DNA of 64,000 nucleotides, from the IMG/VR virus record IMGVR_UViG_3300037067_005124, positions 7,760-71,759 of that record; one strand, given 5' to 3'. Below are positions 8,631 through 58,072 of the stretch, one piece after another (the first letter of the stretch is position 1; every line of letters starts with the position of its first letter). A program made the position numbers and the translations under genes. The DNA is from a virus. Taxonomy: Duplodnaviria; Caudoviricetes. A model generated the notes under the pieces. It was not told the DNA's origin. It did no database searches and saw nothing but the letters and a program-made list of their open reading frames with translations.

Positions 8631-9182
8631 ATGGTTATTATTGGAGCAGGGGGAGCGTGTATTGACACGCTTTCCTTTTTTAATGCAAAAAGTGTTATGA
8701 TATTCGATGATGCGAAAACCGGTTCAGTGTTGGGCAATTGTATACTTGGAAACATAGATTGTTTGATAAAAATGCGACCGGAAGACGATATCTATAATTG
8801 CATTGGTTCAGTAGGTGACAATACGGTTAGAAATCGAATATATGAAAAGTTAAAGGCGGCAGGTATAACAACCAAGCCGCTTTTATTATGTAGTTTTATA
8901 AGCGGTAACGTAAAATTTGGCAGTAACGTAATGGCGGGGGTTGGCAGTCAGCTACACCATGACGTAAACATTGAAAATAATGTAGTCGTAAGTCCCGGAG
9001 TTATTTGCTGTGGGAATGTGACATTAAAAGAGAATTGCTTTATCGGGGCAGGAAGCACGATAATCCAGTCTGTTACAATAGGCCGAAACGCGGTTGTCGG
9101 TGCTGGGAGCGTGGTTATACATGACATACCTGACAACGAATTATGGGCAGGTAATCCAGCGAGATTCATACGGAAAGGGTGA
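8631..9182 (+). CDS. neuD: NeuD/PglD-family sugar acetyltransferase
   Basis: IIGAGG N-terminus; hexapeptide repeats; LHHDV catalytic His region; WAGNPARFI C-terminus. Confidence 0.85.
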   Translation: MVIIGAGGACIDTLSFFNAKSVMIFDDAKTGSVLGNCILGNIDCLIKMRPEDDIYNCIGSVGDNTVRNRIYEKLKAAGITTKPLLLCSFISGNVKFGSNVMAGVGSQLHHDVNIENNVVVSPGVICCGNVTLKENCFIGAGSTIIQSVTIGRNAVVGAGSVVIHDIPDNELWAGNPARFIRKG

Positions 9183-9187
9183 TTTAT

Positions 9188-10882
9188 ATGGCAACAGGTT
9201 CAATAGTCGATGCATTAAAAAGTCAAGGTAAGGATTCATCATACGCAGCAAGGAAAAAAATGGCTGAAGCTGCCGGCATTAAAAATTATACAGGTACAGC
9301 AGCACAAAACACAGCACTGTTAAAAACCGTTCAACCGACCAAAACAACCGCAACACCGGCGAAAACTACCGTTGAACCGGTAAAAGCAGCAACTATTACA
9401 CCGGTAAAAAACGTACTTAATGAAGTAAGCTCAACTTCAAGCGACCCCACTATGCAGAAGTATAAAGACCAGTACAACGCAGCTAAAGCATCAGGAAACA
9501 AGCAGGGCATGATAGATGCAGCGGAAGCAGCGGATAATTACAGAACGTCACAAGGCGGCACAGCATTAAACACAAGTCAAATAAGCAGATTAAAAAGCGA
9601 GAATAATACGCTGGACGTAAATTTGGGCGATCCTAACTATGATGCTTTGGCGGGTTCATTGGAAGATATTTATAGCAAGATAGCGTCAATGAATCAAGAA
9701 CCCATGCAAACCGAAGAAGATTACATGTCCGACATAACAGCTAAAATAAACGCACTTCTCAAGGAACAGAAAACCACAGCTGCCGCAAACGCAGAAAAAG
9801 CCAGAAAAGGAATACTGACTGATGCCGACATTGCAAAACAGGAAATGGACGATGCTTATGCACAGCAATTATCCGAACTGGCTTCGCAGGCCGACCAGAT
9901 AAGAGCGGCATATGCTTCCGGCAAACGTGGAATTGAGACTACACGTGACCAGACTTTGCCTACTTACGACACCGCTATGAACCAGCAAGATATTTTAGCA
10001 CAGCGTCAATCAAAGCAGCTTGAAGGTGAATTTGCACAAAGAGGATTGCAGGCCGGTGGACAGGTAACTTCTGAACTTGGACAGTTGGGACAGGAAAATT
10101 TATCTAAAATAGGTGATATTTCAACAAGCAAACAGAATTACATTTCCGACACTGCGAACAAATTAGCAGATTTAGAACAGACGCAAACAGGCGGATTGAC
10201 TGATTTAGCAAGGGCAGAATCAACGGCAGCACAGACTTTGTCCAGCGGAAAAGTGTCAATAATCAAAAAGGTAAACGCTGCATTGTCGAATCTGAACACA
10301 GACGAACAGGCTTTACTTGACAATCTTGCAGCGCAAAGGACTCAAATGCTTATGGACGCTAGCCAGCAGTACCAAAACTTAAGCAGGGAAGAAAGAGACG
10401 CAGCTTTTGACAAATTGCTTGCACAGGCAGGAGTAGCACAGGATTCAGTAAATGTAATCCGTGGACTTATAGATGACAAGATAAAATCTGATATGTATAA
10501 GGTTGAAGCGCAAATAAAAGAACTTGAACTACAAGGACTGCCGGAAAAGCAAAAGCTTGAAATTGAAAAAATCAAGCAGGATATGAAACTTAACAATATA
10601 TCCGCATCCCAGGCATCAGCACAAATAAAGCTTCAGCAGGATAAATTCAAATTCGACAAGGAGCAGCAGCTTACACAGACGGAACGCGAACAGTACAACA
10701 ACTACATAAATATTGTAGACAGCAGTTCATTTGTGTATAAGAATTCCGATGGAGCAACACAGGTTAAAGACAAGGTTGCTCTTAAGGATTATATAGTCAA
10801 ATTATTACCAGATGATAAGAAGTATGATAATATAGTTGATTCCTTATTGTTGAGATATGGTTTGCCTATTGAAAAAGACTAA
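9188..10882 (+). CDS. Ejection/pilot-like virion protein with N-terminal DUF3597-like domain
   Basis: SIVDALKSQGKDSSYAARKKMAEAAGIKNYTGTAAQNTALL matches the DUF3597 pattern; the rest is Gln/Ala-rich coiled coil. Confidence 0.6.
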   Translation: MATGSIVDALKSQGKDSSYAARKKMAEAAGIKNYTGTAAQNTALLKTVQPTKTTATPAKTTVEPVKAATITPVKNVLNEVSSTSSDPTMQKYKDQYNAAKASGNKQGMIDAAEAADNYRTSQGGTALNTSQISRLKSENNTLDVNLGDPNYDALAGSLEDIYSKIASMNQEPMQTEEDYMSDITAKINALLKEQKTTAAANAEKARKGILTDADIAKQEMDDAYAQQLSELASQADQIRAAYASGKRGIETTRDQTLPTYDTAMNQQDILAQRQSKQLEGEFAQRGLQAGGQVTSELGQLGQENLSKIGDISTSKQNYISDTANKLADLEQTQTGGLTDLARAESTAAQTLSSGKVSIIKKVNAALSNLNTDEQALLDNLAAQRTQMLMDASQQYQNLSREERDAAFDKLLAQAGVAQDSVNVIRGLIDDKIKSDMYKVEAQIKELELQGLPEKQKLEIEKIKQDMKLNNISASQASAQIKLQQDKFKFDKEQQLTQTEREQYNNYINIVDSSSFVYKNSDGATQVKDKVALKDYIVKLLPDDKKYDNIVDSLLLRYGLPIEKD

Positions 10883-10899
10883 ATGGAGTAGGTGATAGT

Positions 10900-13800
10900 A
10901 TGGCAAGCAAGTACACAAAATACAGAGAAGAATTAAGTGGGGATGTATCCGAAAGTGCCACAAAAAAAGTGAGCAAGTATGCAAAATATAGAGAATCAGT
11001 GCAAGTTCCTGCTGAACCGGATTGGCAGACACAAAAACTGCTTATGCGCCAATACAGAACCGAAGCGGCTCCAAAGCCTGTAACTCCAAAGCCTGTAGTT
11101 CCAAATCTGCCGAATAAAGCAGAAGAATCCACGGCTTTCGAACCAATAGAACCGTCATACATTGACCCCAACAAAGACATATTTCAAAAGATACGTTATA
11201 GCATAATGAAAAAAGACGCAGAAAAGACAGCTAAAATAGCTTCCGAGATACTTACACCGGACGAATGGGACTTATACAAAAAAGGACCTTCCGGTGACAC
11301 TTCGTTAAACGACCAATACACGGAAATAAGTGCAAAACTTGACTATGCAAAGCAAAACGGCTTGACTAAGTTCTATGAAAAGTTCGGTCGAGAATACAGG
11401 GCGGGACTATTTGGGGACACAAGCAGTAGAGAAGCGGCACAGGAATTAGGCCAAGACACTACAGGAAATAAAGTAGCTGACGTTGTCGCAAACCTGGCAG
11501 GAATGGCAGCAGGATTTACAAAAGGCGGTACTGGCGGAGCGGGATTTGCCTCACCTGTCAGAAATTTAGCTGAAAGCATAGTATCAAAATTAGGCAGTAA
11601 AGCTGCTACAAAAGTTGGCAAGGTTGCTGAAAAAGTAGCTGATAAGGCTTTGATTGGTGCCGTTGAATCAGTCCCCTATTCAGCACAGCAAATAGCAGTA
11701 AACAAAGACGCACAAACTCCTATGGGCATAATATCTACCGTGGGCGGCAATGTTATTTTAGGTGCAGGTGCGGAACTGGCTATAGCAGGATTGGGTAAAG
11801 TTGGTAGGTCTATCATAGAAAAGCTTAAAGCCAAAAAGCCTTTAACAAAGGTCGAAATTCAAGCAATTGATACTTTGCCTGAAGAAGTCAAGGCTGAAGT
11901 GCGGAAACAGCTTCCTTCTGCCGAAAGGCTATTATTGCCTGAACGCGCTACAGCAAGTTTGGAGGCTCCGAGCGTTCCGTTGACGCAGTATGAAAAGAAA
12001 CTGCTGAAAACGCCTGTAACAGAAAAGCGCGTGGAATATCCGGTTGAGACTACGGTAAATAAGGTAAGGACGTTGAGAGATAAGACGCCAATTAATGCAT
12101 ATCACGGCTCTCTGAATGTCAAAGATATTAAAGATATAAAACCTTCATTGGGTGGAGAATTAGGCGAAGGTTTTTATTTCACTAAAAACAAGAAATATGC
12201 ACAAGAATATGCGAAAGAATCGTACGCACCAGTTTCGGAAAAAGCAGGTATATTAAACCTTAATACTAGCAAGCTAAAAATAAAGGAGATAAGTAAAAAA
12301 GATTATCTTGACGAAAGAAGTAAATTTTACAACAAAGAACAAGAACTAAACAATGGCGAATGGGACGCCAATGTTGCCAAAAGAGCAGAAAATAAATTGA
12401 TTAAAAAATATGAATCCGAGGGATATGATGGACTGCATGTGCAAGACGAGCAACAGGGCATTGTATTCCCCAACAGTATTAAAAAAATAAAAACTGTGCA
12501 ACCCCGCCAATTTGAACGCCTTACCGAAACCCAAAAAGCCACAGCAACAAAGACTCTCCTTGACGAAAAAGCCCTTGCAAAACGTGCCGCACTTTCCGAA
12601 AAACAGCGTCAGCAAGTGGCAAGCATGACAGGCTCTACCGTACTACCTGAACAGCCTAAAAAACTGCAGGTGCCCGAACAATATAAGCGTGAAATGCCAA
12701 CAAGGGTAACAAGCGCAGAAATTGAACAGACAAACAAAGGCATAGCACCACAGCAGATAAGGAAACTGCGTACAAAGGCCGTAGAGGCACCAAAGGCAGT
12801 TGAAGGTATCAAAACACCTACAACTAAATTGCGGTCTGAAAAACCTGATTACGACTCAGAAAAAGCAGTGAGTAAGGTTTATTCTAACACCTTAAAGAAA
12901 ACTCCGATGTTAACTGATGCTGAAAAGAAAATGCTTAATGCTAAAGATTACACCTACGATGTCAAAAGCGAAAAGGCAAGCATGGCAGAAGCACAAGAAA
13001 GACTAGCAAAAGACTTTGAAGGCGAAGTTAAAAGTTTATCAGAAAAGGAATCGTTCACCGGTGCGGACATTGATACCATGTTTGGAATCGTTGAAAAGAA
13101 TCTTGATGAAGCCAGAAAAACAGGTGACTATTCGGATGCTCTCAGTATGTTGAAAAATGTTCGTAAAGGTGGAACCGAAAGCGGCAGGGGCGTACAGGCA
13201 TTCGCAAAATATTCCAGAACCACAGAAGGAAAACTTGCGGCAGCACAAGGCGTAATAGATGCAGCTGAAAACGAGATAAAGAAGACCAATCCGAATTTAA
13301 TGAAAAAGATTGATGATGAAGTTTCCGAACTTTCAAAGAAAACAGAAAAGACACCAAAAGTCACTAAAAAAGATGAAATCCGTAGTTGGCTTGATTCAAA
13401 AGAAGCAGAAGCAACACAAAGAGTAAAGGATTATTTCAAGCCTGACACAAGCGGAATAGTAAAAATGCGCGCAGGACTCCCAGGCGAAGTTCTGACCGAT
13501 CTTGCAATTGTCGGAGCTACGAAGCTGGCAAAGGTTTCGCTAAATTTTGCCGACTGGTCCGTAGCCATGATAAAGGAATTCGGTGACAAAATCAAACCTT
13601 ATCTAAGAGAGATATACGCTCATTCCAACAAGGTGTTAAAAGGCGGCAGTAAGAATCTACCAAAGCCAAGAACCATAAAAGATATAACCAAAAACACTTC
13701 AGAAGAAGATATAAGAAATCTTGTTAAAAAGAAATACGGCGTTCCGGTTTTGGAGGAGAATGATGTTAAATTTATCGTAGAGAAAATTGACGAAGCCAAA

Positions 13801-15651
13801 AAGCTGCCTGAAGGGAGCTATAAACAAAGAATGTTAGAAGGTAAGGTTGCACAAATGATAGCCAATAAAATACCTTCCGACATGATAGAAAAAGTCAAAG
13901 CTGTTCAAAGAATGTTCATGCTCATTAATCCCAAGACCGCACTTGTCAGGAACCCACTAGGAAACGCTTTGCTGGGTGCTGCCGAAACCGTGAAGAATGT
14001 TCCCGCTGCCGGTATAGACACAATCATATCTGCGATAAGAAAAAGCGAGCGCACAACTAAACTTGCGCCAATTGTCAAAGGAAAGGCTACACTGCGTGGG
14101 GCTGGAAAAGGCCTTAAGGAATGGGCGCTTGATATCATAAACAGAGTTGACACCAACCCAACGGGTGCGGGTGTGGAAATGCCGAAAAATAAAATATTCA
14201 GTGAGAATCACAAGATATCCAATCCGGCAGTAAAAGCCGTTGCAGACATGGGCGGAAAAGCTGCCAACCTAACTCATTCAGTAGTCGGGAAAATGTTGTC
14301 TTTGGGTGATAGACCGTTTTACGAAGGCGCATATGCTTCAAGAATTGCCGAACTTAAAAAGATTAAAAAAACCAACATTGTCACTGATGAAATGGAACAA
14401 ATGGCAAGAGAACATGCACTGGAAAGAACCTTACAGAATGACAGTTGGATAGCCAAAAAAATATCCAAGATGGGAACCAATAAGGATGATCCGTTTTTAT
14501 GGAAGTTACTCGTTAACCTTGTTGTACCGTTTAAGAAAACGCCCGGGAACATACTTGATAAATTTATTGACTATTCACCAGGTGGAGCATTTAAAGCAGT
14601 CGGGCACGGTTTGAAAACAGCAGGCAAGGGAACGTTTAATCAGAAATTTTTTGTTGATACACTGGCAAGAAGTTTAACTGGTACCGGACTTGCGGTAACT
14701 GGGTATCTTATGGCTAAAAAAGGATGGGTGACAGGTTCAAGAGATCCAAGCAACAAGATTGAAAACTTTGAAACTGCTCTTGGAAAACAAAACTATGCTT
14801 TTAAAATCGGCGACACTTACCAGACATTTGACTGGGCACTTCCAGCCTCTGCACCTATTGCAATGGGTGCCGACTTTTATTATGCTGAAAGCAGGACAAA
14901 AGAAGGCCAAAATGCATTCCTGAAAGGTACGGAAAGCTCAATTAATCTATTGTTTAAATCCACAATGTTGCAAGGGTTATCAAGGTTAACTGCCGGATAT
15001 AGTCCGGCTGCAAGCATAGGCAGCACATTACTGGGAAGCACTACACAATTTACACCAACAGCAGGAAAACAAATCGCACAGTTAAAAGACCCATACCAAA
15101 GAGAAACCTATGATCCTGATTGGGTTATACAGACGCTTAATAAATCCAAGGTTAGAATACCAGACTTAAGCGAAAAACTTCCTGCAAAAGTAGATGTGTT
15201 TGGAAATGACGTAAAAGCATTCCAAGGCAAAAACAACGTGTGGAATGTTTTGTTTAATCCTGGATTTTCTACTGAATTTAAGCCTAACGAAATTCAAAAA
15301 GAAATAATACGGTTGTACAATGACACAGGTAAAACCGAACATATTCCGATTGCAGTAGAAAAATATATAGACGGAACCAAGGAACATCCTAAAATAGCCC
15401 TTTCAGCACAAGAGTACGTTGACTATCAGAAAAAAATAGCCAGGTACACATTTGATGGTTGGGCAACAAAAGGAAAACTGAAAAGTTCAACAGGTTTCAA
15501 TGGCATAATGCGTACAGAAAACTATAAAAACGCCAAGGATGATAAAAGTGGTACAGCAGATGAAAAACGAGTAAAAATGATGGAGTCTATTGTAAAAAAC
15601 GCCAAAGCACAAGCAAAGGCAGAAATACTTGAAAAAAGAGGATACAAATAA
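10900..15651 (+). CDS. Large ejection / polyvalent protein with an ADP-ribosyltransferase-like domain
   Basis: 1583 aa; YHGS...GEGFYFT...YAQEYA...GYDG...E..IVF segment; C-terminal GDTYQTFDWALP..PIAMGAD region resembles large polyvalent-protein domains. Confidence 0.7.
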   Translation: MASKYTKYREELSGDVSESATKKVSKYAKYRESVQVPAEPDWQTQKLLMRQYRTEAAPKPVTPKPVVPNLPNKAEESTAFEPIEPSYIDPNKDIFQKIRYSIMKKDAEKTAKIASEILTPDEWDLYKKGPSGDTSLNDQYTEISAKLDYAKQNGLTKFYEKFGREYRAGLFGDTSSREAAQELGQDTTGNKVADVVANLAGMAAGFTKGGTGGAGFASPVRNLAESIVSKLGSKAATKVGKVAEKVADKALIGAVESVPYSAQQIAVNKDAQTPMGIISTVGGNVILGAGAELAIAGLGKVGRSIIEKLKAKKPLTKVEIQAIDTLPEEVKAEVRKQLPSAERLLLPERATASLEAPSVPLTQYEKKLLKTPVTEKRVEYPVETTVNKVRTLRDKTPINAYHGSLNVKDIKDIKPSLGGELGEGFYFTKNKKYAQEYAKESYAPVSEKAGILNLNTSKLKIKEISKKDYLDERSKFYNKEQELNNGEWDANVAKRAENKLIKKYESEGYDGLHVQDEQQGIVFPNSIKKIKTVQPRQFERLTETQKATATKTLLDEKALAKRAALSEKQRQQVASMTGSTVLPEQPKKLQVPEQYKREMPTRVTSAEIEQTNKGIAPQQIRKLRTKAVEAPKAVEGIKTPTTKLRSEKPDYDSEKAVSKVYSNTLKKTPMLTDAEKKMLNAKDYTYDVKSEKASMAEAQERLAKDFEGEVKSLSEKESFTGADIDTMFGIVEKNLDEARKTGDYSDALSMLKNVRKGGTESGRGVQAFAKYSRTTEGKLAAAQGVIDAAENEIKKTNPNLMKKIDDEVSELSKKTEKTPKVTKKDEIRSWLDSKEAEATQRVKDYFKPDTSGIVKMRAGLPGEVLTDLAIVGATKLAKVSLNFADWSVAMIKEFGDKIKPYLREIYAHSNKVLKGGSKNLPKPRTIKDITKNTSEEDIRNLVKKKYGVPVLEENDVKFIVEKIDEAKKLPEGSYKQRMLEGKVAQMIANKIPSDMIEKVKAVQRMFMLINPKTALVRNPLGNALLGAAETVKNVPAAGIDTIISAIRKSERTTKLAPIVKGKATLRGAGKGLKEWALDIINRVDTNPTGAGVEMPKNKIFSENHKISNPAVKAVADMGGKAANLTHSVVGKMLSLGDRPFYEGAYASRIAELKKIKKTNIVTDEMEQMAREHALERTLQNDSWIAKKISKMGTNKDDPFLWKLLVNLVVPFKKTPGNILDKFIDYSPGGAFKAVGHGLKTAGKGTFNQKFFVDTLARSLTGTGLAVTGYLMAKKGWVTGSRDPSNKIENFETALGKQNYAFKIGDTYQTFDWALPASAPIAMGADFYYAESRTKEGQNAFLKGTESSINLLFKSTMLQGLSRLTAGYSPAASIGSTLLGSTTQFTPTAGKQIAQLKDPYQRETYDPDWVIQTLNKSKVRIPDLSEKLPAKVDVFGNDVKAFQGKNNVWNVLFNPGFSTEFKPNEIQKEIIRLYNDTGKTEHIPIAVEKYIDGTKEHPKIALSAQEYVDYQKKIARYTFDGWATKGKLKSSTGFNGIMRTENYKNAKDDKSGTADEKRVKMMESIVKNAKAQAKAEILEKRGYK

Positions 15652-15839: not shown

Positions 15840-16550
15840 ATGGAAATAATTTCGGAAATCGGACTCGCCCATAACGGTTCACTTGAATGTGCACTGGAAA
15901 TGATAAGAATATCAAAAGAATGCGGTGCAAATGTAGCAAAATTCCAGTTTTATTATCCTGACATTCTCTGCGCAAACCGTAATTGCTTTGATAGTTATAA
16001 ACTGCTGGACAAAATAAAAATGCGACCAAATTGGATTCCTTTTTTGGCGGCTGAGTGTAAAAGGTGGGGAATAGAATTTCTTTGCACGGCATTTGACCGC
16101 TTCAGCGCTGAAGCAATCGAACCGTACATTAAGCGCTTTAAGGTAGCAAGCCCTGAAGTAGCCGACCTCAACTACCTGAAATTCCTTGCAGTATTTGAAA
16201 AGCCTTTGATACTTTCGACAGGAAAGGCTACAGACGAACAGCTTGACAGGATATTTGACGAAATCAAGGTGCCAATATCTTTGTTTTACTGTAAAAGCCT
16301 ATACCCTGCTTTGCCGTCTGATTACAACTTAAAGGAAATAGACAGGCTTAAAAAGAAATATCGTGTTCCAACTGGCATTTCAGACCATACAGCGGGAATT
16401 ATGACCAGCATAGAAGCAGTTGAAAAGCATAAAGCCGACATTGTTGAGCGTCACATAATGATTGACAAAAATTGCGTAGATGCCGCAGTTAGTTTAATGC
16501 CTGCAGACTTTTTAAAATTGACACAAATAATAAGGAGGAATCATGGATAG
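15840..16550 (+). CDS. neuB: NeuB-family nonulosonate synthase (TIM barrel only, no SAF domain)
   Basis: IISEIGLAHNGS, AKFQ, FLCTAFD, KVASPE, PLILSTG, CKSLYPA, GISDHT, IVERH motifs. Confidence 0.92.
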   Translation: MEIISEIGLAHNGSLECALEMIRISKECGANVAKFQFYYPDILCANRNCFDSYKLLDKIKMRPNWIPFLAAECKRWGIEFLCTAFDRFSAEAIEPYIKRFKVASPEVADLNYLKFLAVFEKPLILSTGKATDEQLDRIFDEIKVPISLFYCKSLYPALPSDYNLKEIDRLKKKYRVPTGISDHTAGIMTSIEAVEKHKADIVERHIMIDKNCVDAAVSLMPADFLKLTQIIRRNHG

Positions 16551-16692
16551 TGTAATCTTTCAGCTAATTACCTTTAACCCCGTCGAAATCAACGGAATCA
16601 AGACTTTTGATAACATGTTTATAATCCTTGACAGCGAGGACAAAATCGGGGCAGGCATGATATTTCCACAGGTTCAGGAGGTAAGCCAATGA
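16543..16692 (+). CDS. Small hypothetical protein (49 aa) coupled between neuB and maf
   Basis: RBS AAGGAGG; overlaps the neuB stop and the maf start. Confidence 0.5.
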   Translation: MDSVIFQLITFNPVEINGIKTFDNMFIILDSEDKIGAGMIFPQVQEVSQ

Positions 16693-25554: not shown

Positions 25555-25557
25555 ATG

Positions 25558-44830: not shown

Positions 44831-44948
44831 AAGCCGGGAGGCTTCTTTTTTTATAGCATAAGACAGTCTTGCAAACTGTAGGCGGGTGTCCTCACTTCCC
44901 GCCTTTTCTTATGCCTTTTTTAGTGGGGAGAAATGTAAAAAGTGAGGT

Positions 44949-47604: not shown

Positions 47605-48676
47605 CATTGCTCTCTCTCGTCCATCCTACCTCTCATACACCGACGAAGTATGCAAAGCTGTCAACAAAGTAATCCGTTCCGGCTTTATAGCACAAGGCAA
47701 GGTCACGGAAGAATTCGAACAAAAGATTGCAGAATATGTCGGCGTAAAACATGCCATAGCCGTATCAAGCGGTACGGCAGGACTATTCTTATGCCTTAAG
47801 GCTTGCGGTATAGGGCCTGGTGACGAGGTTATAACCACACCTTTTTCATTTATAGCCAGCACAAATGTCATAGTTCATGCTGGTGCAAAGCCTGTGTTTG
47901 TGGATATTGACAGAGATACTTACAACATGGATATAGATAAAATGCCATTATTTGTAGACAGTGAAGTGAAGGCCATATTGCCAGTGGATGTGTTCGGCAA
48001 TCCATTCAATTCAAGGCGAATAGGCGGGTTGTGGCCTATTATTCTTGATGCATGTGAATCATTCGGTAGCAAAATGCAACGTCCTTTTGATACATGCGTA
48101 TATGCGGCGTATCCGAACAAACAATTGACAACAGGCGAAGGCGGCATAATATGCACCGACAACCAATCCATAGCTGAATACTGCCAGGCACAACGCAACC
48201 AAGGGCGCAAAAAGGGCGACCAGTGGCTGGAATCGTCATACATAGGATGGAATTTCCGTATGACGGATATACAGGCTGCTATAGGGTTGGTACAACTTAA
48301 CCATTGGGAAGAAATATGCCGTAAACGACATAATGTTTATCTACAATACGTCCACAACTTGATACTGGATGAAAGAATAAAGTTACAGGAATTCGGGAGT
48401 GGCTGGCAGGAGCTAAGCCATTTTGTTTTCACTATTGAATGTGACAACCGCGACAAAGTAATGCAGTACATGTTATCCCATGGCATAGAATGCAAGCCGT
48501 ACTTTCCTTGTATCCATACACAGAAACCATATTTAGAAATAGGATACAAACAAGGTGACTTTCCTATTGCTGAATTGGTATCGTCAAGGACTTTGGCTTT
48601 GCCGTTTTGGACGGATATGTCAGAATCAGAAGTAGATACCGTATGCAAGGTATTAAAGCAAGCATTGGAGGTGTGA
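47591..48676 (+). CDS. DegT/DnrJ/EryC1/StrS sugar aminotransferase (LegC/PglE-like)
   Basis: AVSSGTAGL, GPGDEVITTPFSFIAS, ILDACES, YPNKQLTTGEGG (PLP Lys), NFRMTDIQAAIG. Confidence 0.92.
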   Translation: MTMYNIALSRPSYLSYTDEVCKAVNKVIRSGFIAQGKVTEEFEQKIAEYVGVKHAIAVSSGTAGLFLCLKACGIGPGDEVITTPFSFIASTNVIVHAGAKPVFVDIDRDTYNMDIDKMPLFVDSEVKAILPVDVFGNPFNSRRIGGLWPIILDACESFGSKMQRPFDTCVYAAYPNKQLTTGEGGIICTDNQSIAEYCQAQRNQGRKKGDQWLESSYIGWNFRMTDIQAAIGLVQLNHWEEICRKRHNVYLQYVHNLILDERIKLQEFGSGWQELSHFVFTIECDNRDKVMQYMLSHGIECKPYFPCIHTQKPYLEIGYKQGDFPIAELVSSRTLALPFWTDMSESEVDTVCKVLKQALEV

Positions 48677-48677: not shown

Positions 48678-50643
48678 ATGGCTTTAAGAGTAAGAAAAAG
48701 TGGCAGAATTCTTTGTGCTGCCAAAAGTTTACCCGAGGATGGAGATATTTACATTGATGACGGTATACATTGCTGGCTAACTAGATGCTTGGATATATCT
48801 ATAAATGTTATTGAATCTTTGGGCGAAGATGAAAACGGAGAGGAAGAATGGAAAGTTATCAAGGAGGTAGTATGAGTTATTATCCTAAAATCGAATCCAT
48901 AATAACAGAAGGTAAACGACTAGAAAAAGAAAAAGAAGTTTTAAGTAACATAGAAAGCATAATAGAAATAATTGAAAATCAAATAAAGAATCCAAACGCA
49001 TACACACAAGGCTATCTATCCATATGCTGCGAATACGATTCCTATTCCGATAGGACAAGACACCACGAAATAAAAGTATCAGGATTAGACTGGAACGACA
49101 TTAAGCCAATGCTTGAAAAGCGGAAAAAGGAAATTGCAGCAGGGTTTGAAAAAATACAGGAGGTACTATGATAGACAATAAAACCCTTGACAGTGCAAAT
49201 GAATTAATTAAAAAGGCTGAAAAAGTCAATAAATTAATGTCACAGTGTTTCGCACTAGATAATTTGTGGCAAAACAATTACTTTTCTGTAAGAATTTCAA
49301 ACAGAATGACAGAAGCCTACGTTGAAGTATCGGAAGAAACTGCAAAAATGATACAGCATGATATTTTAACACAAATGCTAAAAATTGAAAGGGGATTAAA
49401 GGAGGCGCTAGCATGAAATGTCACGACTGCCATAAAGAAATAAAAAAAGACTACGGTTTTTACAGCACTGGCGACGGTATGTGTACATACGGTGGTTGGA
49501 TAAGTCTTTGCAAGAAATGCAGAATTTCACATATAGCGGTATTTACCTTGTTTATAGGTGTTCCATTGGGAATGCTGGCAGCTATTGTGATAGGATTTAT
49601 TGTTTTTTATAGGTAAAGGAGGTACTATGAAACATTTGCTTAAGTCGTTTGGCAAACCCAATTCTACAAAAACAAATGAAGAGCTGTTCAAGGAAATATT
49701 TCAACACACAGAGTTACCTTACGGTTATGATGGCGGTTCTTATGGCGGTGGTAAAACAATCCAAACAAACTATAGGTTAGGCATAAGAAAAAATGAACAT
49801 GATGCATGGTTGTGTAACATTATGTTTTCGTTTGACAGCAAAGGAAGATTAATGAGTGTTGAAACAACAGGAGAGATTTAAGGAGGTACCATGAAAACAT
49901 GTTGTGTTATAAACGGTGATACCTTTGTATTAACATGGTATGACTTACTAGACATGCTGACAACCATAAGAAAACTGGAAATGCACGGTTTAATTGATGG
50001 CAATAAGGTTGCAAATGACTTGCTTGACTACTACACAAAGAATTATAAGGAGTTAAAACCATGAAAACCATATGCTTTTTTACTTCTGGCAGATGTTTGG
50101 ACGCAAGTATCACATAAGTACGAGAAGAAAGGGGGATAAAGGGATGAAAGGCAAGTTAAAAACACGTCTTAGAGTAGGTCGCGGAGAGACTTTTGACGAT
50201 AAAGGCTATGCCGGAAAAGTTGTTGAAATTACAGACACGGAAAACCATTTGATATACGGAAAAAGATATAAGGTTTTAGGCTTTGACGATTGGTTTGAGG
50301 CAAATTGTTTTGAATACATTGATAAGGAGATAAAACCATGAAAAGAAGAATAACTGTAAAGCAATTGCAGGAATTGACACCCGAACAACAAGTAAAATTA
50401 AATAGGTGGTGGAGTCCAGAAAACGGCGATTATTATTACTGCATAAATTGGGATTTTAAGCCATATAAAGGTTTAGTTTATTTGAAAGGCACAGGGGAGA
50501 AAAAACATGATGCACTTCCTTTTCTCAACATAGGCCAAATGATTGAACTATTACAGGATAATAATGTTGATATGTATGCTATATTTAACAGCGACGGAGA
50601 ACTTGCGGATGGCCTATGGCAAGCAGTAAAGGCGGTGCTATGA
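48678..50643 (+). other. Run of about eight small hypothetical ORFs interrupting the sugar-pathway genes
   Basis: Short ORFs, mostly coupled, with GGAGG RBSs. Confidence 0.6.
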
Positions 50644-51818
50644 TGAAAAAAATCTGTTGTATCACCACTTGCCGCGCTGACTACGGATATCTTTATTACA
50701 TCATGGAAGATTTGCAGGACAGTTACAACATAGTATTGCAGATAATATGTCCAACAAGTCATCAAAACTTCCAAGAAATAAATGATAAATTCGGTAGAAG
50801 TTTATGCCGTGCAAATCCAATATGCTCAATTGATGATTTCGGCAGATTTTACAAGGATTGCCTTGACTGTTTACGTGTTTTAAAGTCTGATATGGTGGTT
50901 ATTTTGGGAGATCGTTTTGAAATGTTGGCAGCAGCCACAGCAGTATTATTGCTGAACATACCAATTGCGCATATCCACGGTGGCGAGACAACGACCGGGG
51001 CTTTTGACGACAATATCAGAAATGCAATTACCATGATGGCGGATTACCATTTTACGGCAACGGAGGAATATGCCCAGAACGTATCTCATATGACCCGAAT
51101 TGATGAATACAAAGATTGCATAACAAATGAATATTGCTGGAATATGAACGAAGATGGCTTCGGGTATGAAAGATTTAATACACAAGACGAAGAAACCAAA
51201 AAACGCATTAAAATATTCAACGTCGGTTCACCCGGTTTAGACTGGCTGACACGCACAAAGTTACTTTCCAGGCAGGAATTACAACAGCATGTTTCAATAG
51301 ACTTGAATCAGCCGTTTATTGTGGCTTGTTTTCATCCGGTGACAAAAGAACTTGAACATACAACCGAATATACCATAAACATGTTAAGAGCGTTGCATAA
51401 ATCCGGAATGCAGTTCATAGTAATAATGCCTAATTTTGACCCCAAAAACAACGAAATACGCAATGCGTATCTATGTTACGATGATGATCATCCTAACAAT
51501 AACAAAGTTGCATTTATAGACAACCTTGACCACCTTACCTATTTATCCCTGCTGCAATTTGCTTCCTTCATGGTTGGCAACAGTTCAAGCGGAATCATAG
51601 AATCAGCGTCGTTTAACCTGCCTTCTGTGACGGTGGGAACGCGACAGGAAGGGCGAATCAAGCCCGACAATGTATTTTCCTGTCCATGCGAGACAGAAGC
51701 CATTTTGACCGCCATAGACCGCGCAAGGGAATGGAATGCGCTGGTAGGGAAGTGCGAGAATTTGTACGGTGACGGTAACAGCAGTAAACGTATTGTAGAA
51801 ATACTGGAGGAAATATGA
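50640..51818 (+). CDS. neuC: NeuC/LegG-type hydrolysing NDP-sugar 2-epimerase
   Basis: ITTCRADYG, ILGDRFEML, AHIHGGE, VGNSSSGIIE, GTRQEGR, YGDGNSSKRI. Confidence 0.92.
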   Translation: MMKKICCITTCRADYGYLYYIMEDLQDSYNIVLQIICPTSHQNFQEINDKFGRSLCRANPICSIDDFGRFYKDCLDCLRVLKSDMVVILGDRFEMLAAATAVLLLNIPIAHIHGGETTTGAFDDNIRNAITMMADYHFTATEEYAQNVSHMTRIDEYKDCITNEYCWNMNEDGFGYERFNTQDEETKKRIKIFNVGSPGLDWLTRTKLLSRQELQQHVSIDLNQPFIVACFHPVTKELEHTTEYTINMLRALHKSGMQFIVIMPNFDPKNNEIRNAYLCYDDDHPNNNKVAFIDNLDHLTYLSLLQFASFMVGNSSSGIIESASFNLPSVTVGTRQEGRIKPDNVFSCPCETEAILTAIDRAREWNALVGKCENLYGDGNSSKRIVEILEEI

Positions 51819-52125: not shown

Positions 52126-52827
52126 TTGACAACAGCAATATTTCTCACAGTAAGAATAAATTCAACTCGCCTATCCCGTAAAGCCTTGCTTGAAATCAAC
52201 GGCGAAACCGTAACTGAAATCCTAATAAAACGGCTGAAAAAAACAAACATTCCAATAATCATATGCACAACCGACGAACCCGAGGACGGAAAGTATCTAA
52301 AGCCCCTTGCCGAAAAGTATAGTTTAGGCTATCATGAAGCCCCTGCAGGAAATATAATCGCTCAACATTCGGATTGTGCAAGGGAAAACAGGGTAGATTT
52401 TATCATAAACATGGATGGTGACGATATTTTAAGCGCTCCCGAGGTCATACAAGCCGTTTACAATCACGCCATAGGTAAAAAATACTTATACCCCATAAAG
52501 ACGGTAGGATTACCATTAGGACTTAATGTAATAGGCTATCCCGCACATAAACTGACGGAAATTGACTTTGACAAGGACACCAATTGGGGAGCGCAGATAT
52601 TTACAGGAAAACATGTGGAAATCAAGTTCAATTATGATTATAATTTTCGCCTGAGCATGGACTATGAATTAGACTACTTGGTTATAAAGGATATTTTAAC
52701 CCATTGCAAACGCAACCTGCTAGTCGGCGGCATATGCGACTACCTACAGAAACACCCGGGCATAGCACAGTTAAACTTGCACCTGAATAAAGAATATTGG
52801 GAAAGGATAGAGGAATTGGGAAAATGA
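52126..52827 (+). CDS. SpsF/NeuA-like cytidylyltransferase (CMP-nonulosonate synthetase)
   Basis: AIFLTVRINSTRLSRKALLEING, INMDGDD, RLSMDYELD. Confidence 0.85.
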   Translation: MTTAIFLTVRINSTRLSRKALLEINGETVTEILIKRLKKTNIPIIICTTDEPEDGKYLKPLAEKYSLGYHEAPAGNIIAQHSDCARENRVDFIINMDGDDILSAPEVIQAVYNHAIGKKYLYPIKTVGLPLGLNVIGYPAHKLTEIDFDKDTNWGAQIFTGKHVEIKFNYDYNFRLSMDYELDYLVIKDILTHCKRNLLVGGICDYLQKHPGIAQLNLHLNKEYWERIEELGK

Positions 52828-53008
52828 AATGGTTTAAAAACTTATCAAGAAACAGGAAACCGGATAAATTTTGGGAATGGAAAGACAAAGACTGCTATGT
52901 GTGTTCAAATAAAACATGTTTCGGAAATGCCGACAAGCTTTGTTTTAATACCCGTGACCAATTTCAACGGGGCAAATGTTCAAAAGGATTAAAGAAAGGG
53001 GAAAACAT

Positions 53009-54028
53009 ATGCGTATAATCGTAATCGGACTTGGCAGCATGGGGCAAAGGCGCATTAGGTGTCTTAAAGCGATAGGTTATACCGACATATACGGAACTGA
53101 TGCCAATACAGTGAAAGGAATTCAAACATGTAATAAATATAATATAGATTTTGTGTCACCTTTTAACAAAAACGGCTTAATGGACTGCAAGCCTGATGCC
53201 ATAATTGTATCTACGCCACCCTTAACAAAAGAGGGTTTTATATTTATGGCAAATTCTAACAATATACCTGTTTTCTGTGAAGCAGATGTTAAAATTTATC
53301 CGTTCACTTACCATAGTTCCGCAACAATGCGTTTTCACCCTGCCATACAAAAGATAAAAGAATGCATAGATACTGGCGACTTAGGACGGATATACACTTT
53401 CAATTACCAAATGGGGCAAAGTCTGTATGACTGGCACCCTGGCGCCGATATGAAAACATATTATGCAGCACAGAAGGAGTCTGGAGCGGCACGGGAAATG
53501 TTCTGCTTTGAATTATCCTGGCTATCGTATCTTTTCGGAACTCCCGTTGACGCAAAAGGCATGATTGACAAGAAACTTGACGACCCTGACATAATGGCTG
53601 ATGATGTGTATACAACAGTGGTAAAATTCAATAAACAGATATTCCAAACAGACAATATCGGAGATGTAAACGGAGTCAGTTTCATACGCGGACACGCTTT
53701 TCAGGAATCTATCACCGGCACCGTCCTAATCGACATAGTATCCCGTCCCGCAATTCGCGAACTGCGTATTGTTGGAAGCAAAGCTAATCTTTTGTGGAAT
53801 TGGGAATCAGACCACATCGAACTTGAATATCCAGACGGAGAAACATCAATGATTTTCTATCCAAAAAGTAAGGCGGCTGATGGATACAACGAAAATATTC
53901 CAGAATTTATGTACGAGCGGGAAATGCAGAATTTTATTGATGCAATTCAAGGCAAAGAACAGTATTTATACAGTCGAGAAGATGAAAAAGCTTGTATTGA
54001 AATGCTTGAGAAGGTGGAAAATGTATAA
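53009..54028 (+). CDS. Gfo/Idh/MocA NAD-dependent oxidoreductase
   Basis: IIVIGLGSMGQRR, IIVSTPP, VFCEA; DWHPG.D...Y...KE.G.G pattern seen in sugar-locus members. Confidence 0.85.
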   Translation: MRIIVIGLGSMGQRRIRCLKAIGYTDIYGTDANTVKGIQTCNKYNIDFVSPFNKNGLMDCKPDAIIVSTPPLTKEGFIFMANSNNIPVFCEADVKIYPFTYHSSATMRFHPAIQKIKECIDTGDLGRIYTFNYQMGQSLYDWHPGADMKTYYAAQKESGAAREMFCFELSWLSYLFGTPVDAKGMIDKKLDDPDIMADDVYTTVVKFNKQIFQTDNIGDVNGVSFIRGHAFQESITGTVLIDIVSRPAIRELRIVGSKANLLWNWESDHIELEYPDGETSMIFYPKSKAADGYNENIPEFMYEREMQNFIDAIQGKEQYLYSREDEKACIEMLEKVENV

Positions 54029-55040
54029 AGAAATAGGGAAAATAGTCTATGAGACAGTATCAACCAAAGAAAACCCGCGAAATAGCGAGGGTGCATTCAT
54101 AGAACTTAACAACGAAGATATTTTATTCGTTTACAGCAAGTTCACAGGACATAGGGACAGCGACAAAGCCTGCATTGCCTGCATACGTTCAAAAGACGGC
54201 GGTGAAACATGGCAAGACGAAAAGATATTATTTACAGTAGAAGAACACAAGGCCAAAAATATAATGAGCGTATCACTTCTCAGAATGAATAACGATATAG
54301 GAATGGTTTACCTTGTCAGAAAAGGATGGGGAGATACAAGACCTATCATTCGCAGATCGTCAGATGAGGGTGAAACATGGACTGAGCCTTTATGTTGCAC
54401 ACAAACAAAAGGATATTACGAAGTCAACAACGACCGCTTAGTTAGGTTATCAAATGGACGAATAATCATTCCAACGGCTTATTATGGCGTGAAAAAGAAT
54501 TACGACCCGCTTTCATTCCGTGGAACTGCAATATTTCTAATCTCAGATGATGACGGTTATACATGGCGGGAATCAAGCGAAATCTGTCAAATGCCCATTC
54601 CGCGTTCAAGAACAGGACTACAGGAACCTGGTGTAATCGAATGTAAAGGTTATTTGTGGGCATGGTTCAGAACAGATATGGGCTTTCAATACGAATCATT
54701 TTCGCGTGACAACGGGGATTCATGGACACAACCGCAGCCGTCAATTTTTACGTCCTCAGATTCGCCACTGTCGATGAAAATGTGGAATAAAATCTATGCC
54801 GTATGGAATCCGCGACCGTCGCATTTTGGTTGTCCTGTACCGCGCAATCCGCTTATGATGGCATGGAGCAAGGATGGGACGAAATGGAGCATGTGTTTCC
54901 TTGAGGACCCGACCAAGCTAATGGGGTACTGCTATACTGCAATACATTTCACGGAAAGGGATATTCTTCTGGCTTACAGCGCAGGAGAGTATAAAAAGGG
55001 GCATAGTTCGCTTGAAAGGTTGAGGATAAGGAAAATTTAA
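54021..55040 (+). CDS. Sialidase-fold (BNR/Asp-box) glycoside hydrolase, no signal peptide
   Basis: Five Asp-boxes (SKDGGETW, SSDEGETW, SDDDGYTW, SRDNGDSW, SKDGTKW); PRNSEG, GLQEPG, YCY near the C-terminus. Confidence 0.82.
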   Translation: MYKEIGKIVYETVSTKENPRNSEGAFIELNNEDILFVYSKFTGHRDSDKACIACIRSKDGGETWQDEKILFTVEEHKAKNIMSVSLLRMNNDIGMVYLVRKGWGDTRPIIRRSSDEGETWTEPLCCTQTKGYYEVNNDRLVRLSNGRIIIPTAYYGVKKNYDPLSFRGTAIFLISDDDGYTWRESSEICQMPIPRSRTGLQEPGVIECKGYLWAWFRTDMGFQYESFSRDNGDSWTQPQPSIFTSSDSPLSMKMWNKIYAVWNPRPSHFGCPVPRNPLMMAWSKDGTKWSMCFLEDPTKLMGYCYTAIHFTERDILLAYSAGEYKKGHSSLERLRIRKI

Positions 55041-55105
55041 AAAGTGCAAGTTCGGAACATAAAAAAATAATGCAAAGCACCTAATGGTGCAGAAAGTGAG
55101 TTTTT

Positions 55106-55513: not shown

Positions 55514-55618
55514 CGTTAATTTACAATATTAGGACAAATCAATTCAGCGGCTTAACAAGCCGCTTTTTTAATTTTTCAAAGATAGAGAGTTAGAAAGAAA
55601 AACAGAGAGGATGATAGT

Positions 55619-55999: not shown

Positions 56000-56039
56000 T
56001 TTATTAACTCTCTATCTTTGATTACCTTAAGGAGGAAAT

Positions 56040-56474
56040 ATGATACCAAGCAAAGAAAAAATAAAGGAAATTATAAAATCGCTTCAGCGAATTCTAAAAA
56101 TACAAGATTGGGACATTGATTTTGACTTTTGTGGTGATAAAAAAATTCAAGAATTGGCCGGAGATTTTTATTATGCTTGTTGTGAAAGACAAATGAGACT
56201 TCACAAGGCAACCATATACATAAACAAAGACCATAATGGTATTGATGAATGGTACTCGACGCTTGTGCATGAACTGTATCACATTGTTACTCAAAATTGG
56301 CACTATCACGCCAAAAGCCTTTTAGATTATATTGCCGATGAAACCACAAAAAGCAAGGAAAGTGAAATGCTCGCAAATTATTATGAGCAAACCATAGAGG
56401 ATTTAGCAAAAGGCTTTGTAAGTGCTTATCCTGTAACCAATTTTACCAAGGAGGTTGAAAATGTTACCGAGTAA
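56040..56474 (+). CDS. Zincin-like metallopeptidase
   Basis: TLVHELYHI (HExxH). Confidence 0.6.
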   Translation: MIPSKEKIKEIIKSLQRILKIQDWDIDFDFCGDKKIQELAGDFYYACCERQMRLHKATIYINKDHNGIDEWYSTLVHELYHIVTQNWHYHAKSLLDYIADETTKSKESEMLANYYEQTIEDLAKGFVSAYPVTNFTKEVENVTE

Positions 56475-56787
56475 AATTAAAATAGGTGGATACCAATATA
56501 AAATCAATCTGAAACCACAAAAGGAAATTATAGTCAATGACACTGTTTCCAGAGCTGCAATACACTTTGAAATCAACGAAATAGACATACAAGAAAACTT
56601 GGGGCATGGACGCAAATTGCAGACTCTTTTTCATGAAATACAACATGGAATAGACGAATTTTACAGGATAAATTACAAGAATATCGAAGAAGAAGAATTA
56701 GCTGAACTGCTTGCAAATACGTGGTGTCAGGTATTACTTGATAATCCGGAGTTATTAAAGTTCGTACAGGAGGTCGCAAATGAATAA
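56461..56787 (+). CDS. ImmA-like metallopeptidase (paralog of 26353)
   Basis: LPSKIKIGGYQYKI...TLFHEIQHGI. Confidence 0.65.
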   Translation: MLPSKIKIGGYQYKINLKPQKEIIVNDTVSRAAIHFEINEIDIQENLGHGRKLQTLFHEIQHGIDEFYRINYKNIEEEELAELLANTWCQVLLDNPELLKFVQEVANE

Positions 56788-58072
56788 CCATTTTGCTACA
56801 TACAGCAGGAGTTCAGATTGCTTTCCTGCAAATTGTCCCGAGGTTTTTACCCATGCTAAAGGCTGTCGTGCCATAGCTGATGATGGCAGGGAATTTATTG
56901 ACTGGGGGATGGCGTTAAGGTCCGTATTGCTTGGATATTGTTATAAACCCGTAGACGATGCAGTAAAAGCGGCTATAGACAAAGGCATAAGTTATACCCG
57001 TTCCAACCCATACGAGGGGGAATTGCGGGAAATAATCACGCAGGAATTAAAATTAGGTGAGGTTTGTAAGTTTGGCAAGAACGGCAGTGACGCTACAACG
57101 GCGGCAATCCGTCTAAGCCGCGCCTATACAGGCAAAAAATACATACTTATACCGCAGGAATGCCCGTTTTTCTCAACTGATGCGTGGTTTATCGGAACAA
57201 CTCAGGTAAATGACGGCATATTACCCGAAGAATATAAATACAGCAAGGTATTTTCGTATAATAATATGATGGTGGACGGAATAGATGTTGACGATTGGAT
57301 ATCTGAAAACAAAGACGTTGCGGCGGTCATAGTGGATTTGGCTACAGCAGACAACAGCAAAGAAAAACTACAACAGATAAGGGATATGTGCACGAAACAT
57401 AACGCGTTACTAATTATGGATGAAATTATAACTTGTTTTCATGTCGGTTTGCGTGGTTACCAAGGGTTATACAATATCAAACCAGATTTGACAACGTTAG
57501 CCAAAGGACTAGGAAATGGTTATGCGGTAAGTTGTATAGCGGGAAGAAGTGAAATACTCGACTTAACTATAAGGGGGAAAGGTTCGGTTTTTGCTGCATC
57601 GGGTACGTATTTTTCTAACACTCCAGAACTGTGTGCGGCGATAACGTGTATAAGGGAATTGGAGAAGTTTTCGTATTTTAGTTGCAATGACAAAAAGTTT
57701 GATGCATGGGATTATTTGAAAAATATTGGTGGTAAGATTATCGATTTTACAAACAACAAAATAAAGGCATACGGACTTGATACGTATGTTGAAATTGGCG
57801 GCTTTCCTTCTTTACCTATAATGAAATGGAAAACAAGTGAAGGATTAAAAGCCAAGACGGTATTCGATACTGAAATGATAAATCAGGGCATTCTTGCCCC
57901 GTATTGGTCGCCATCACTAAGTCATTCTTTTGAGGATATAACAATAACATTAGAGGCAATCGATGCTTCACTTGATGTTTTAAGAAGGGTAATTTCAAGT
58001 GGCAGTTTTGATAACCATATTGAGTTAAAATGTGGAAACTGGATAGAAAGACCAGTTTTCAGAAGAACGTAG
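56780..58072 (+). CDS. Class-III PLP aminotransferase (GSA-aminomutase-like, sugar-locus type)
   Basis: GREFIDW...LLGY, FGKNGSDATTAAIRLSRAYTG, LLIMDEIITCF, DLTTLAKGLGNG. Confidence 0.88.
   Translation: MNNHFATYSRSSDCFPANCPEVFTHAKGCRAIADDGREFIDWGMALRSVLLGYCYKPVDDAVKAAIDKGISYTRSNPYEGELREIITQELKLGEVCKFGKNGSDATTAAIRLSRAYTGKKYILIPQECPFFSTDAWFIGTTQVNDGILPEEYKYSKVFSYNNMMVDGIDVDDWISENKDVAAVIVDLATADNSKEKLQQIRDMCTKHNALLIMDEIITCFHVGLRGYQGLYNIKPDLTTLAKGLGNGYAVSCIAGRSEILDLTIRGKGSVFAASGTYFSNTPELCAAITCIRELEKFSYFSCNDKKFDAWDYLKNIGGKIIDFTNNKIKAYGLDTYVEIGGFPSLPIMKWKTSEGLKAKTVFDTEMINQGILAPYWSPSLSHSFEDITITLEAIDASLDVLRRVISSGSFDNHIELKCGNWIERPVFRRT

Follow-up and report, generated by a model that had tools for sequence, protein, structure and literature searches.

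The subject of this work is a predicted system for making a sialic-acid-like sugar (a nonulosonate) and attaching it to protein, encoded in the genome of an uncultured bacteriophage. The stretch analyzed, hereafter the window, comprises 64,000 nucleotides, corresponding to bases 7760-71759 of the 71,759-bp IMG/VR virus contig IMGVR_UViG_3300037067_005124; positions are those of the window, and those in the whole record are preceded by L003. The record was rated as 100% complete by CheckV. A terminase, a P22-type portal, a capsid protein, an Amidase_3 endolysin, an integrase and a CI-like repressor were all found, confirming the phage identity of the DNA, and the source genome is that of a complete tailed temperate phage with a P22-type portal and a size of roughly 71 kb. 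Judged by sequence, this one genome appears to carry a complete pathway for an activated nonulosonate together with a Maf-type glycosyltransferase, as had been proposed in the original prediction.

Donor-Sugar Genes of the Phage

The enzymes named in that prediction were all present where they had been placed, on the plus strand, and each of them (acetyltransferase, NeuB, Maf, DegT, NeuC and cytidylyltransferase) was matched when checked against profile hidden Markov models (HMMs). For comparison, all the open reading frames (ORFs) of this genome were searched in three near-complete relatives with a GC content of 37-46%, G001 (56.6 kb), G002 (70.5 kb, CheckV 100%) and G004 (59.2 kb). An assembly from a different archive, L054, whose portal was 56% identical, was compared over a region that starts at the sugar block and reaches as far as the first tail genes.

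The gene for the first step, a 4,6-dehydratase (Polysacc_synt_2, 234.5 bits), is found in the 7.7 kb preceding the window (L003:1998-2819), flanked by the portal and scaffold genes. Recoding was considered for this gene and rejected, as the apparent internal TAG stop was the gene's own stop codon. A PglD/NeuD-type left-handed-beta-helix (LbH) sugar N-acetyltransferase with PglD_N and Hexapep domains is encoded at 8631-9182 (plus strand). It scored 127.7 bits on TIGR03570 (NeuD/PglB/VioB), under the cut-off of 160.8, and was 46-59% identical in the relatives; the LbH architecture is common to NeuD-type O-acetyltransferases as well. The DegT/PseC/LegC-family pyridoxal phosphate (PLP) sugar aminotransferase (DegT_DnrJ_EryC1, 299.9 bits) was located at 47570-48676 on the plus strand, with an alternative start at 47591. 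Further along the same strand, at 50616-51818 (alternative start 50640), lies a NeuC/LegG-type hydrolyzing UDP-sugar 2-epimerase, the sole enzyme that scored above an NCBIfam equivalog cut-off (TIGR03568 NeuC, 326.7 versus 235.9 bits).

The following gene (52126-52827, plus strand) encodes a divergent CMP-sugar (KdsB/NeuA-like) cytidylyltransferase, which passed the CTP_transf_3 cut-off with 24.6 against 22.6 bits. It matched PDB 6oew with an E-value of 3e-8 and also KdsB, in its N-terminal half only, and was 50-63% identical in the relatives.

Three more genes belong to the same region, all on the plus strand. A GFO/IDH/MocA NAD-dependent sugar oxidoreductase (52976-54028), with both the N- and C-terminal domains of the family, was conserved in G001, G002, G004 and L054. 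A class-III (glutamate-1-semialdehyde-aminomutase-like) PLP aminotransferase (56780-58072; Aminotran_3, 90 bits) reached 312.5 bits on PRK06209, under its cut-off, and was 43-51% identical in the relatives. The same aminotransferase class is found inside the Pse-type O-antigen cluster of Legionella pneumophila (PMC3694923). The oxidoreductase and this aminotransferase probably tailor the sugar further. The third gene (54021-55040) encodes a sialidase-fold six-bladed propeller with five Asp-boxes (BNR_2, 83.3 bits; cut-off 31.4). It gave weak matches to solved exo-sialidases, with candidate R, D, E, R, R and Y residues whose sialidase-like spacing was judged by eye only, and it is accessory, with a homologue (72%) in G001 only.

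Seven proteins were read directly. All of them kept the hallmark cofactor or catalytic motifs of their families, among them GxxGxxG and STDKA...YGYSK in the dehydratase, DACESFG and the PLP lysine in NKQLTTGEGG in the DegT protein, HIHGGE and GNSSSG in NeuC, and R..S.R...K and DGDD in the cytidylyltransferase, so that none of the enzymes looks dead.

The Maf Glycosyltransferase

The transferase gene (16689-18341, plus strand) was assigned to a Maf-type (MAF_flag10/DUF115) nonulosonate protein O-glycosyltransferase that ends in a helical bundle. Its product matched MptE-like/DUF115 (PF01973) over residues 208-362 with 117.9 bits (cut-off 34.6), and Maf_flag10_N (PF20157) with 43.3 bits (cut-off 23.5), positions 114-164 of the 228 in the latter profile being covered. 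In the AlphaFold2 (AF2) model (pLDDT 89, pTM 0.80) the last ~100 residues formed a helical bundle (helices 459-549). When this model was searched with Foldseek, the Maf of Magnetospirillum magneticum (5mu5) was the only strong solved match, over the full length (E 5.8e-22, TM 0.60/0.54, 638 alignment columns), and the next match had an E-value of 1e-3. The HMMs and the model together bear out that this is a genuine Maf-fold glycosyltransferase. On the NCBIfam PseD flagellin-modification model the protein scored 59.4 bits, far under the cut-off of 670. Five Asp residues (D273, D275, D295, D342 and D358) are invariant in the Maf clade and may include the counterpart of the essential catalytic Asp of the GT domain (D247 in Maf-1, D261 in Maf-2). 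No member of the GT2 or GT4 families was found in the genome, and Maf is its sole recognizable glycosyltransferase.

No Maf homologue was found in 50,697 GenBank phage records. Full-length Maf had ~33 close clusters (at least 36% identity), which came from metagenomes only, and identity then fell sharply to 29% in bacterial Mafs. The phage Maf and the phage NeuB each form a tight metagenome-only clade apart from their bacterial homologues. Distant Maf/MptE-like genes (22-27% identity, many of them shorter) were also seen in at least 19 other viral contigs of IMG/VR (L019-L037). UniProt and BFVD hold MptE-like proteins from uncultured Caudovirales and from a choanoflagellate giant virus (A0A6J5PG89, A0A0F7L3H2), which are unannotated or named "HPPK MptE-like".

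The phage protein was compared with the bacterial Maf systems that modify flagellin (Campylobacter, Helicobacter, Aeromonas, Shewanella, Clostridium botulinum and Magnetospirillum magneticum 5MU5). The three-part fold and the Pfam domains are common to both, and maf is linked to CMP-nonulosonate biosynthesis genes in the bacteria as in the phage. By contrast, the phage system is encoded in a genome without flagellin or flagellar genes, and the phage Maf is at most 29% identical to the bacterial ones and shorter (530-600 aa versus ~620-660 aa). Acceptor choice in bacterial Mafs depends on a C-terminal helical/TPR domain or on a small cis-encoded helper, GlfM (bioRxiv 10.1101/2023.12.03.569772). 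Maf-1 has an acceptor-selecting C-terminal helical domain, and the phage Maf possesses a domain of that kind; by analogy, its acceptor is presumably selected by its own helical bundle, perhaps with the small ORF described below.

A Synthase Without SAF Domain and a Conserved Small ORF

The NeuB-family nonulosonate synthase (15840-16550, plus strand) consists of the TIM barrel only (Pfam NeuB, 155.6 bits, residues 21-233 of 236) and lacks the SAF/antifreeze-like C-terminal domain. The same was observed in all of the ~41 phage-clade synthase clusters, every one of 221-256 aa and without SAF, and outside the clade identity dropped sharply, from at least 46% to no more than 37%, the full-length proteins at that level mostly carrying the SAF domain. 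The metal-binding histidines of the SDH and ERH motifs were invariant in the clade, as were other active-site positions. In the structure of Neisseria NeuB, the SAF domain is said to contribute a substrate-binding arginine.

Between neuB and maf lies a conserved ORF of 49 aa (16543-16692, plus strand) that matches no known family and overlaps the neuB stop by 8 nt and the maf start by 4 nt. Homologues of 41-57 aa occupied the same position in 13/13 loci, and neither a PHROG nor an Atlas match was found for them. In locus L009 an HNH gene was inserted after neuB, and the small ORF remained with maf. The possibility that it is a detached SAF domain was tried and rejected, as hhalign gave a probability of 0.2% when its 14-sequence alignment was compared with 50 bacterial NeuB C-termini. 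In layout only, it resembles the tripartite arrangement of GlfM and Maf-2; with just 41-57 aa it cannot be GlfM, which is roughly a four-helix protein. The small ORF may nonetheless assist Maf.

Operon Context and Conservation in the Lineage

The sugar genes are interwoven with lytic genes. The stop of the acetyltransferase gene overlaps by 4 nt the start of the gene for a 567-aa virion protein, and the unit formed by neuB, the small ORF and maf directly follows the gene for a 1583-aa virion protein and precedes the holin and the endolysin. The Amidase_3 endolysin (18725-19276, plus strand; 46 bits) lies just 3' of maf, at the end of the late operon. At the other end of the window, a predicted phage transcriptional activator (58083-58526, plus strand; phrog_36 and phrog_248) starts 10 nt after the class-III aminotransferase gene and is followed by a strong terminator with a 15-bp stem (58530-58565), after which come the large terminase gene (58678-60417) and the packaging/head operon. 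The P22-type portal gene is found there at 60774-62753 on the plus strand (phrog_156; PF16510 P22_portal on homologues), and the capsid gene lies outside the window at L003:4702-5661. No strong promoter-like site was found on the coding strand upstream of neuB-maf. This layout suggests that expression of the donor-sugar genes accompanies that of the middle and late lytic genes, and expression of the transferase that of the virion genes; for the system to be active in a lysogen, each of the four loci would have to have a promoter of its own.

The sugar genes were conserved at 43-77% protein identity in G001, G002 and G004 (43-80% when L054 was included), and their order was common to these genomes. 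From the MT-A70 gene it runs through DegT, then NeuC, cytidylyltransferase and oxidoreductase, and then the class-III aminotransferase, the activator, terminase, portal and dehydratase. It continues with a scaffold-like protein of 274 aa, a 143-aa protein and the capsid, and later with the acetyltransferase, the 567-aa protein, the giant protein, NeuB, the small ORF, Maf and the lysis genes. The layout of L054 was the same over the region compared. The dehydratase adjoined or overlapped the portal in G001, G002, G004 and L054, starting 8 nt after it or overlapping its stop (the latter in L054). In the genome studied here, an HNH endonuclease gene (L003:1051-1416) and ~3 kb of extra DNA separate the two. 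In every one of the 13 Maf-clade loci, the SAF-less NeuB was located upstream of Maf at a distance of no more than 2.4 kb. Since both the whole set and its order are kept, the sugar system behaves as a core function of the lineage and not as a moron.

Partial relatives carried XhlA-type holins, Amidase_3, integrases or serine recombinases, and ParA/ParM genes, and the lineage is one of uncultured temperate phages with a P22-type portal and genomes of about 60-72 kb. The possibility that the assembly is a chimera with a host glycosylation island was rejected, because the dispersed layout recurs in five independent assemblies of other samples and because the GC content is uniform (0.32-0.43 along the genome). 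The genes had been described as scattered among phage ORFs instead of forming one captured block, which was taken as a sign of long domestication. They do occupy four separate loci, interspersed with late and structural genes, and the recurrence of this layout in relatives so diverged in protein identity and GC content fits a long residence in the lineage.

Which Nonulosonate Is Made

The set of enzymes had been said to match the legionaminic acid (Leg) route, and this held for the architecture only. The CMP-legionaminic acid pathway proceeds through LegB/PglF, LegC, LegH/PglD, LegG, LegI and LegF, and the phage has one candidate enzyme for each of these six steps, both of the Leg-diagnostic types being represented, by the probable LbH N-acetyltransferase and by the NeuC-type hydrolyzing 2-epimerase. 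The pathway to CMP-pseudaminic acid (Pse; PseB, C, H, G, I and F) would need PseG and PseH, and neither PseG (TIGR03590) nor PseH (TIGR03585) was matched in six frames of the complete genome. Yet three of the phage enzymes, namely the dehydratase, the aminotransferase and the synthase, scored closer to the Pse-type.

The dehydratase obtained 226.7 bits on the PseB model (cut-off 407.75) and 47.9 bits on the LegB model (cut-off 475); against solved structures it reached 171 bits with Pen/CapD, 163 with PseB and 124 with PglF, scores from which a retaining and an inverting dehydratase cannot be told apart. The DegT aminotransferase gave 233.8 bits on the PseC model and 203.8 on the LegC-family model, both under the cut-off. 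The best solved relative of the synthase was pseudaminic acid synthase (106 bits), followed by SpsE (77) and Neisseria NeuB (67). Its scores on the equivalog models were 148.7 bits for NeuB_NnaB (cut-off 399.65) and 138.8 for PseI (cut-off 340.25), both under the cut-off. Typing of the sugar by synthase phylogeny was also tried and discarded, since the phage clade was monophyletic, on a long branch, and grouped neither with the Pse-named nor with the Neu/Leg-named homologues.

Because these sequences disagree with a clean Leg assignment, the product is named only by its class, as a putative 5,7-diamino nonulosonate of the Leg/Pse class made by an architecture of the Leg-type, for which either stereochemistry would be compatible with the sequences. 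The phage set also differs from the Leg pathway in its SAF-less synthase, in the extra GFO/IDH/MocA oxidoreductase and class-III aminotransferase, and in being spread over four loci instead of one cluster.

Other Features of the Genome

The lysogeny module (24460-25878, minus strand) consists of a tyrosine integrase and a CI-like HTH repressor, which are the only sizeable genes on the minus strand; nearly all the others are on the plus strand. The early genes include ERF and NinB-like proteins. In the lysogeny/early region, proteins resembling NYN-domain nucleases (23199-23801), nucleoside 2-deoxyribosyltransferases (28859-29332) and DUF559/MTES_1575 endonucleases (35286-35837) were also noted. 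The sugar-gene block is headed by an MT-A70 adenine methyltransferase (44949-46076; 69-72% identity in G001 and G002), directly preceded by a terminator-like hairpin (44829-44846). A protein combining sigma-70 region 4 with the C-terminal domain of the RNA polymerase alpha subunit is encoded at 46726-47604; its gene shares 35 nt with the start of DegT, and the protein had no tblastn match in the three relatives G001, G002 and G004.

A radical SAM/SPASM protein encoded within the tail-gene block (6111-7121) is not conserved in G001, G002 or G004 and may serve in the maturation of a peptide or protein, or else in sugar tailoring; L054 has a different radical SAM gene, upstream of its NeuC gene. 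The acetyltransferase gene is immediately preceded by that of a 186-aa protein (8049-8609) with a SEC-C zinc-binding motif and a weak match to retropepsin-like aspartyl proteases, whose position is filled in the relatives by a Cu_amine_oxidN1-domain protein. The 1583-aa virion protein (10900-15651) contains, at residues 396-531, an ART-PolyVal ADP-ribosyltransferase domain (39.2 bits) and occupies the podovirus site for ejected internal proteins; only ~30% of its length was conserved in the relatives.

The last 105 bases of the contig (63896-64000) repeat L003:764-868 with 99% identity, and further short collinear matches were found between L003:273-305 and 71035-71067 and between L003:548-578 and 71494-71524 of the genome. 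These matches show both contig ends to be diverged copies of one locus; the genome, of ~70.9 kb, is probably circular or circularly permuted, strain variation having kept the assembler from closing it.

No relative at the DNA level was found among the cultured phages of INPHARED, where the portal gave a single weak partial match, in an uncultured fecal phage contig; portal homologues were exclusively metagenomic. The GTDB scan returned 3 short contigs only, binned in metagenome-assembled genomes of Babeliales, Paceibacterota and Nanoarchaeia, and these are probably mis-binned phage DNA. A host of the Gram-positive/Bacillota type is hinted at by the Amidase_3 endolysin of this phage and by the XhlA and Cu_amine_oxidN1 proteins of its relatives.

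Discussion

From the family assignments, the following order of reactions is proposed, the identity of the sugar, the timing of expression and the acceptor being likewise deduced. The dehydratase, the DegT aminotransferase and the LbH N-acetyltransferase would convert UDP-GlcNAc into a 2,4-diacetamido-2,4,6-trideoxyhexose nucleotide, from which the NeuC-type hydrolyzing 2-epimerase would release the free hexose. The SAF-less synthase would then condense this hexose with phosphoenolpyruvate (PEP) to a 5,7-diacetamido nonulosonate, and the divergent cytidylyltransferase would activate it with CMP, the oxidoreductase and the class-III aminotransferase probably serving to tailor the sugar. Finally, Maf, possibly assisted by the coupled small ORF, would attach the sugar through O-linkage to Ser/Thr residues of an acceptor protein. 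The acceptor would most likely be at least one of the phage's own virion proteins, and the progeny particles would then bear an acidic sugar of the bacterial type.

Glycosylation of a virion protein is the best reading because the genes form part of lytic operons and no flagellin is encoded (there was no Flagellin_N match in the complete genome). It is also the most economical one for a cytoplasmic system that is directed at protein, presumably runs from lytic operons and belongs to the core of its lineage. Maf enzymes are reported to work in the cytoplasm, modifying proteins that have folded and are not yet exported (PMC4065374), and this compartment is the site of virion assembly. Candidate acceptors are Ser/Thr/Ala-rich structural proteins, for example the 143-aa protein encoded before the capsid gene, or tail proteins. 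Lambda-like phages encode decoration proteins at just such a position, and the 143-aa protein had an ESM-Atlas feature score of 0.92 to a cluster containing Phage_cement_2. That this phage lineage O-glycosylates a virion protein of its own during lytic growth, through a self-encoded cytoplasmic system, is a proposal to which we give an even chance. The fuller version, in which a phage-specialized Maf (perhaps aided by the 41-57-aa ORF product as a new partner) and a non-canonical nonulosonate pathway coat the phage's own capsid or tail to give the first nonulosonate-decorated phage particle, falls a little short of even and is offered tentatively.

Several points weigh against these proposals. 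The cytidylyltransferase assignment (24.6 bits) is weak, and the activity or the specificity of the synthase may differ because its SAF domain is missing. The timing of expression is read from the gene layout alone. The identity of the acceptor is something that we infer, and the 143-aa protein is a lead as a cement protein by its gene position and language-model score: its AF2 model was of low confidence (pLDDT 53), 0/13 members had a Pfam match at E <= 1, and no PHROG match was obtained. To our knowledge, flagellin is the sole Maf acceptor shown experimentally, and the host may be a flagellated one whose flagellin is the real target. Lastly, the linear six-step pathway is itself a deduction, and NeuC, NeuB and the cytidylyltransferase alone could give CMP-N-acetylneuraminic acid (CMP-Neu5Ac).

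This last point leads to an alternative that concerns the chemistry only and that we regard as unlikely, namely that two pathways are present: one in which NeuC, NeuB and the cytidylyltransferase yield CMP-Neu5Ac, with a NeuD-type O-acetyltransferase, and another in which the dehydratase and the aminotransferases produce a separate amino-deoxyhexose. NeuD, NeuB, NeuC and NeuA form the canonical sialic acid gene set, and NeuD is an O-acetyltransferase in Escherichia coli K1. The phage set resembles this one, and the slightly higher score of its synthase on the NeuB_NnaB than on the PseI model points the same way. Some Mafs are, moreover, able to transfer Neu5Ac (bioRxiv 10.1101/2020.06.03.131540). 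Nevertheless, the genome lacks a second glycosyltransferase that could use the separate hexose, the dehydratase, DegT and acetyltransferase genes are conserved along with the others in all the relatives, and among solved structures the synthase comes nearest to pseudaminic acid synthase and not to NeuB (106 versus 67 bits).

The acceptor could instead be a host flagellin, pilin or S-layer protein, glycosylated in lysogens or late in infection, with the effect of masking receptors against superinfection or of sparing progeny from debris. This idea gains from the demonstrated role of flagellin mentioned above and from the temperate nature of the phage. The kind of helical domain by which bacterial Mafs choose their acceptors is also present in the phage Maf (bioRxiv 10.1101/2023.12.03.569772), prophage EpaA/EpaB enzymes remodel host nonulosonates in Acinetobacter (PMC12053666), and a neuABC set in a lake virus was given this interpretation (bioRxiv 10.1101/655167). 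The gene arrangement tells against it, as the sugar genes sit at four places in lytic operons, where their translation is coupled to that of portal, virion and lysis genes, and no strong promoter-like site precedes neuB-maf. The set is a lineage core and not a variable moron, and flagellin newly made at a late stage in a doomed cell would scarcely alter the existing filament. We therefore think that a host-protein acceptor has only a small chance of being correct.

Least probable of all, and in our view quite improbable, is that the genes are auxiliary metabolic genes (AMGs) that supply CMP-nonulosonate to host transferases for capsule, LPS or teichoic acids, or that drain UDP-GlcNAc, PEP and CTP, with Maf minor or unrelated: viral neuA/B/C-capD-pglC/D genes have been read in this way (bioRxiv 10.1101/655167) and nonulosonates are common in bacterial surface polysaccharides, but Maf and the synthase are adjacent and coupled via the conserved small ORF in 13/13 loci, no polysaccharide-type glycosyltransferase was found in the genome, and genes lying in lytic operons would leave little time for surface remodeling.

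Glycosylation of the phage's own virion would have a precedent in mycobacteriophages, which reportedly (Freeman et al. 2023) glycosylate their virions by means of ordinary glycosyltransferases and host sugar nucleotides. These phages share with the present one the location of glycosyltransferase genes beside structural genes and, in the proposed reading, the modification of capsid and tail proteins in the cytoplasm; they are not known to use nonulosonates or to encode a donor-sugar pathway or a Maf. Nonulosonate enzymes in phage genomes, as here, are known from two cases. The Lake Biwa viral genome LBVG_26 carries neuA/B/C, capD, pseA, pglC and pglD, which were read as host-surface AMGs (bioRxiv 10.1101/655167), and the epaA-epaB enzymes of an Acinetobacter prophage remodel host pseudaminic acid (PMC12053666). 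Both were interpreted as host-surface modifiers, and no Maf, virion target or embedding in structural operons was described for them. The statement that no characterized phage has its own nonulosonate pathway and Maf must therefore be narrowed: with LBVG_26 already published, such a pathway in uncultured phages is not wholly unreported, and it is the link to Maf and the reading as virion glycosylation that appear to be new, as the literature search found no paper linking Maf to phages or phage particles or proposing nonulosonate-coated virions.

If the proposal is true, Maf-type O-glycosylation would be extended beyond flagellin, and phages would be able to carry a whole donor-sugar pathway with which to cover their own particles in a sialic-acid-like sugar of the bacterial kind. 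The covering could alter the charge and stability of the particle, its recognition by proteases and antibodies, its adsorption to surfaces or mucus, and its host range. The SAF-less synthase found throughout the lineage is a possible minimal scaffold for nonulosonate synthases, the small ORF coupled to Maf is a new candidate accessory factor, and the two additional enzymes, the oxidoreductase and the aminotransferase, may point to a nonulosonate that has not been described before. It would also follow that nonulosonate genes in viral metagenomes are not automatically AMGs directed at the host surface.

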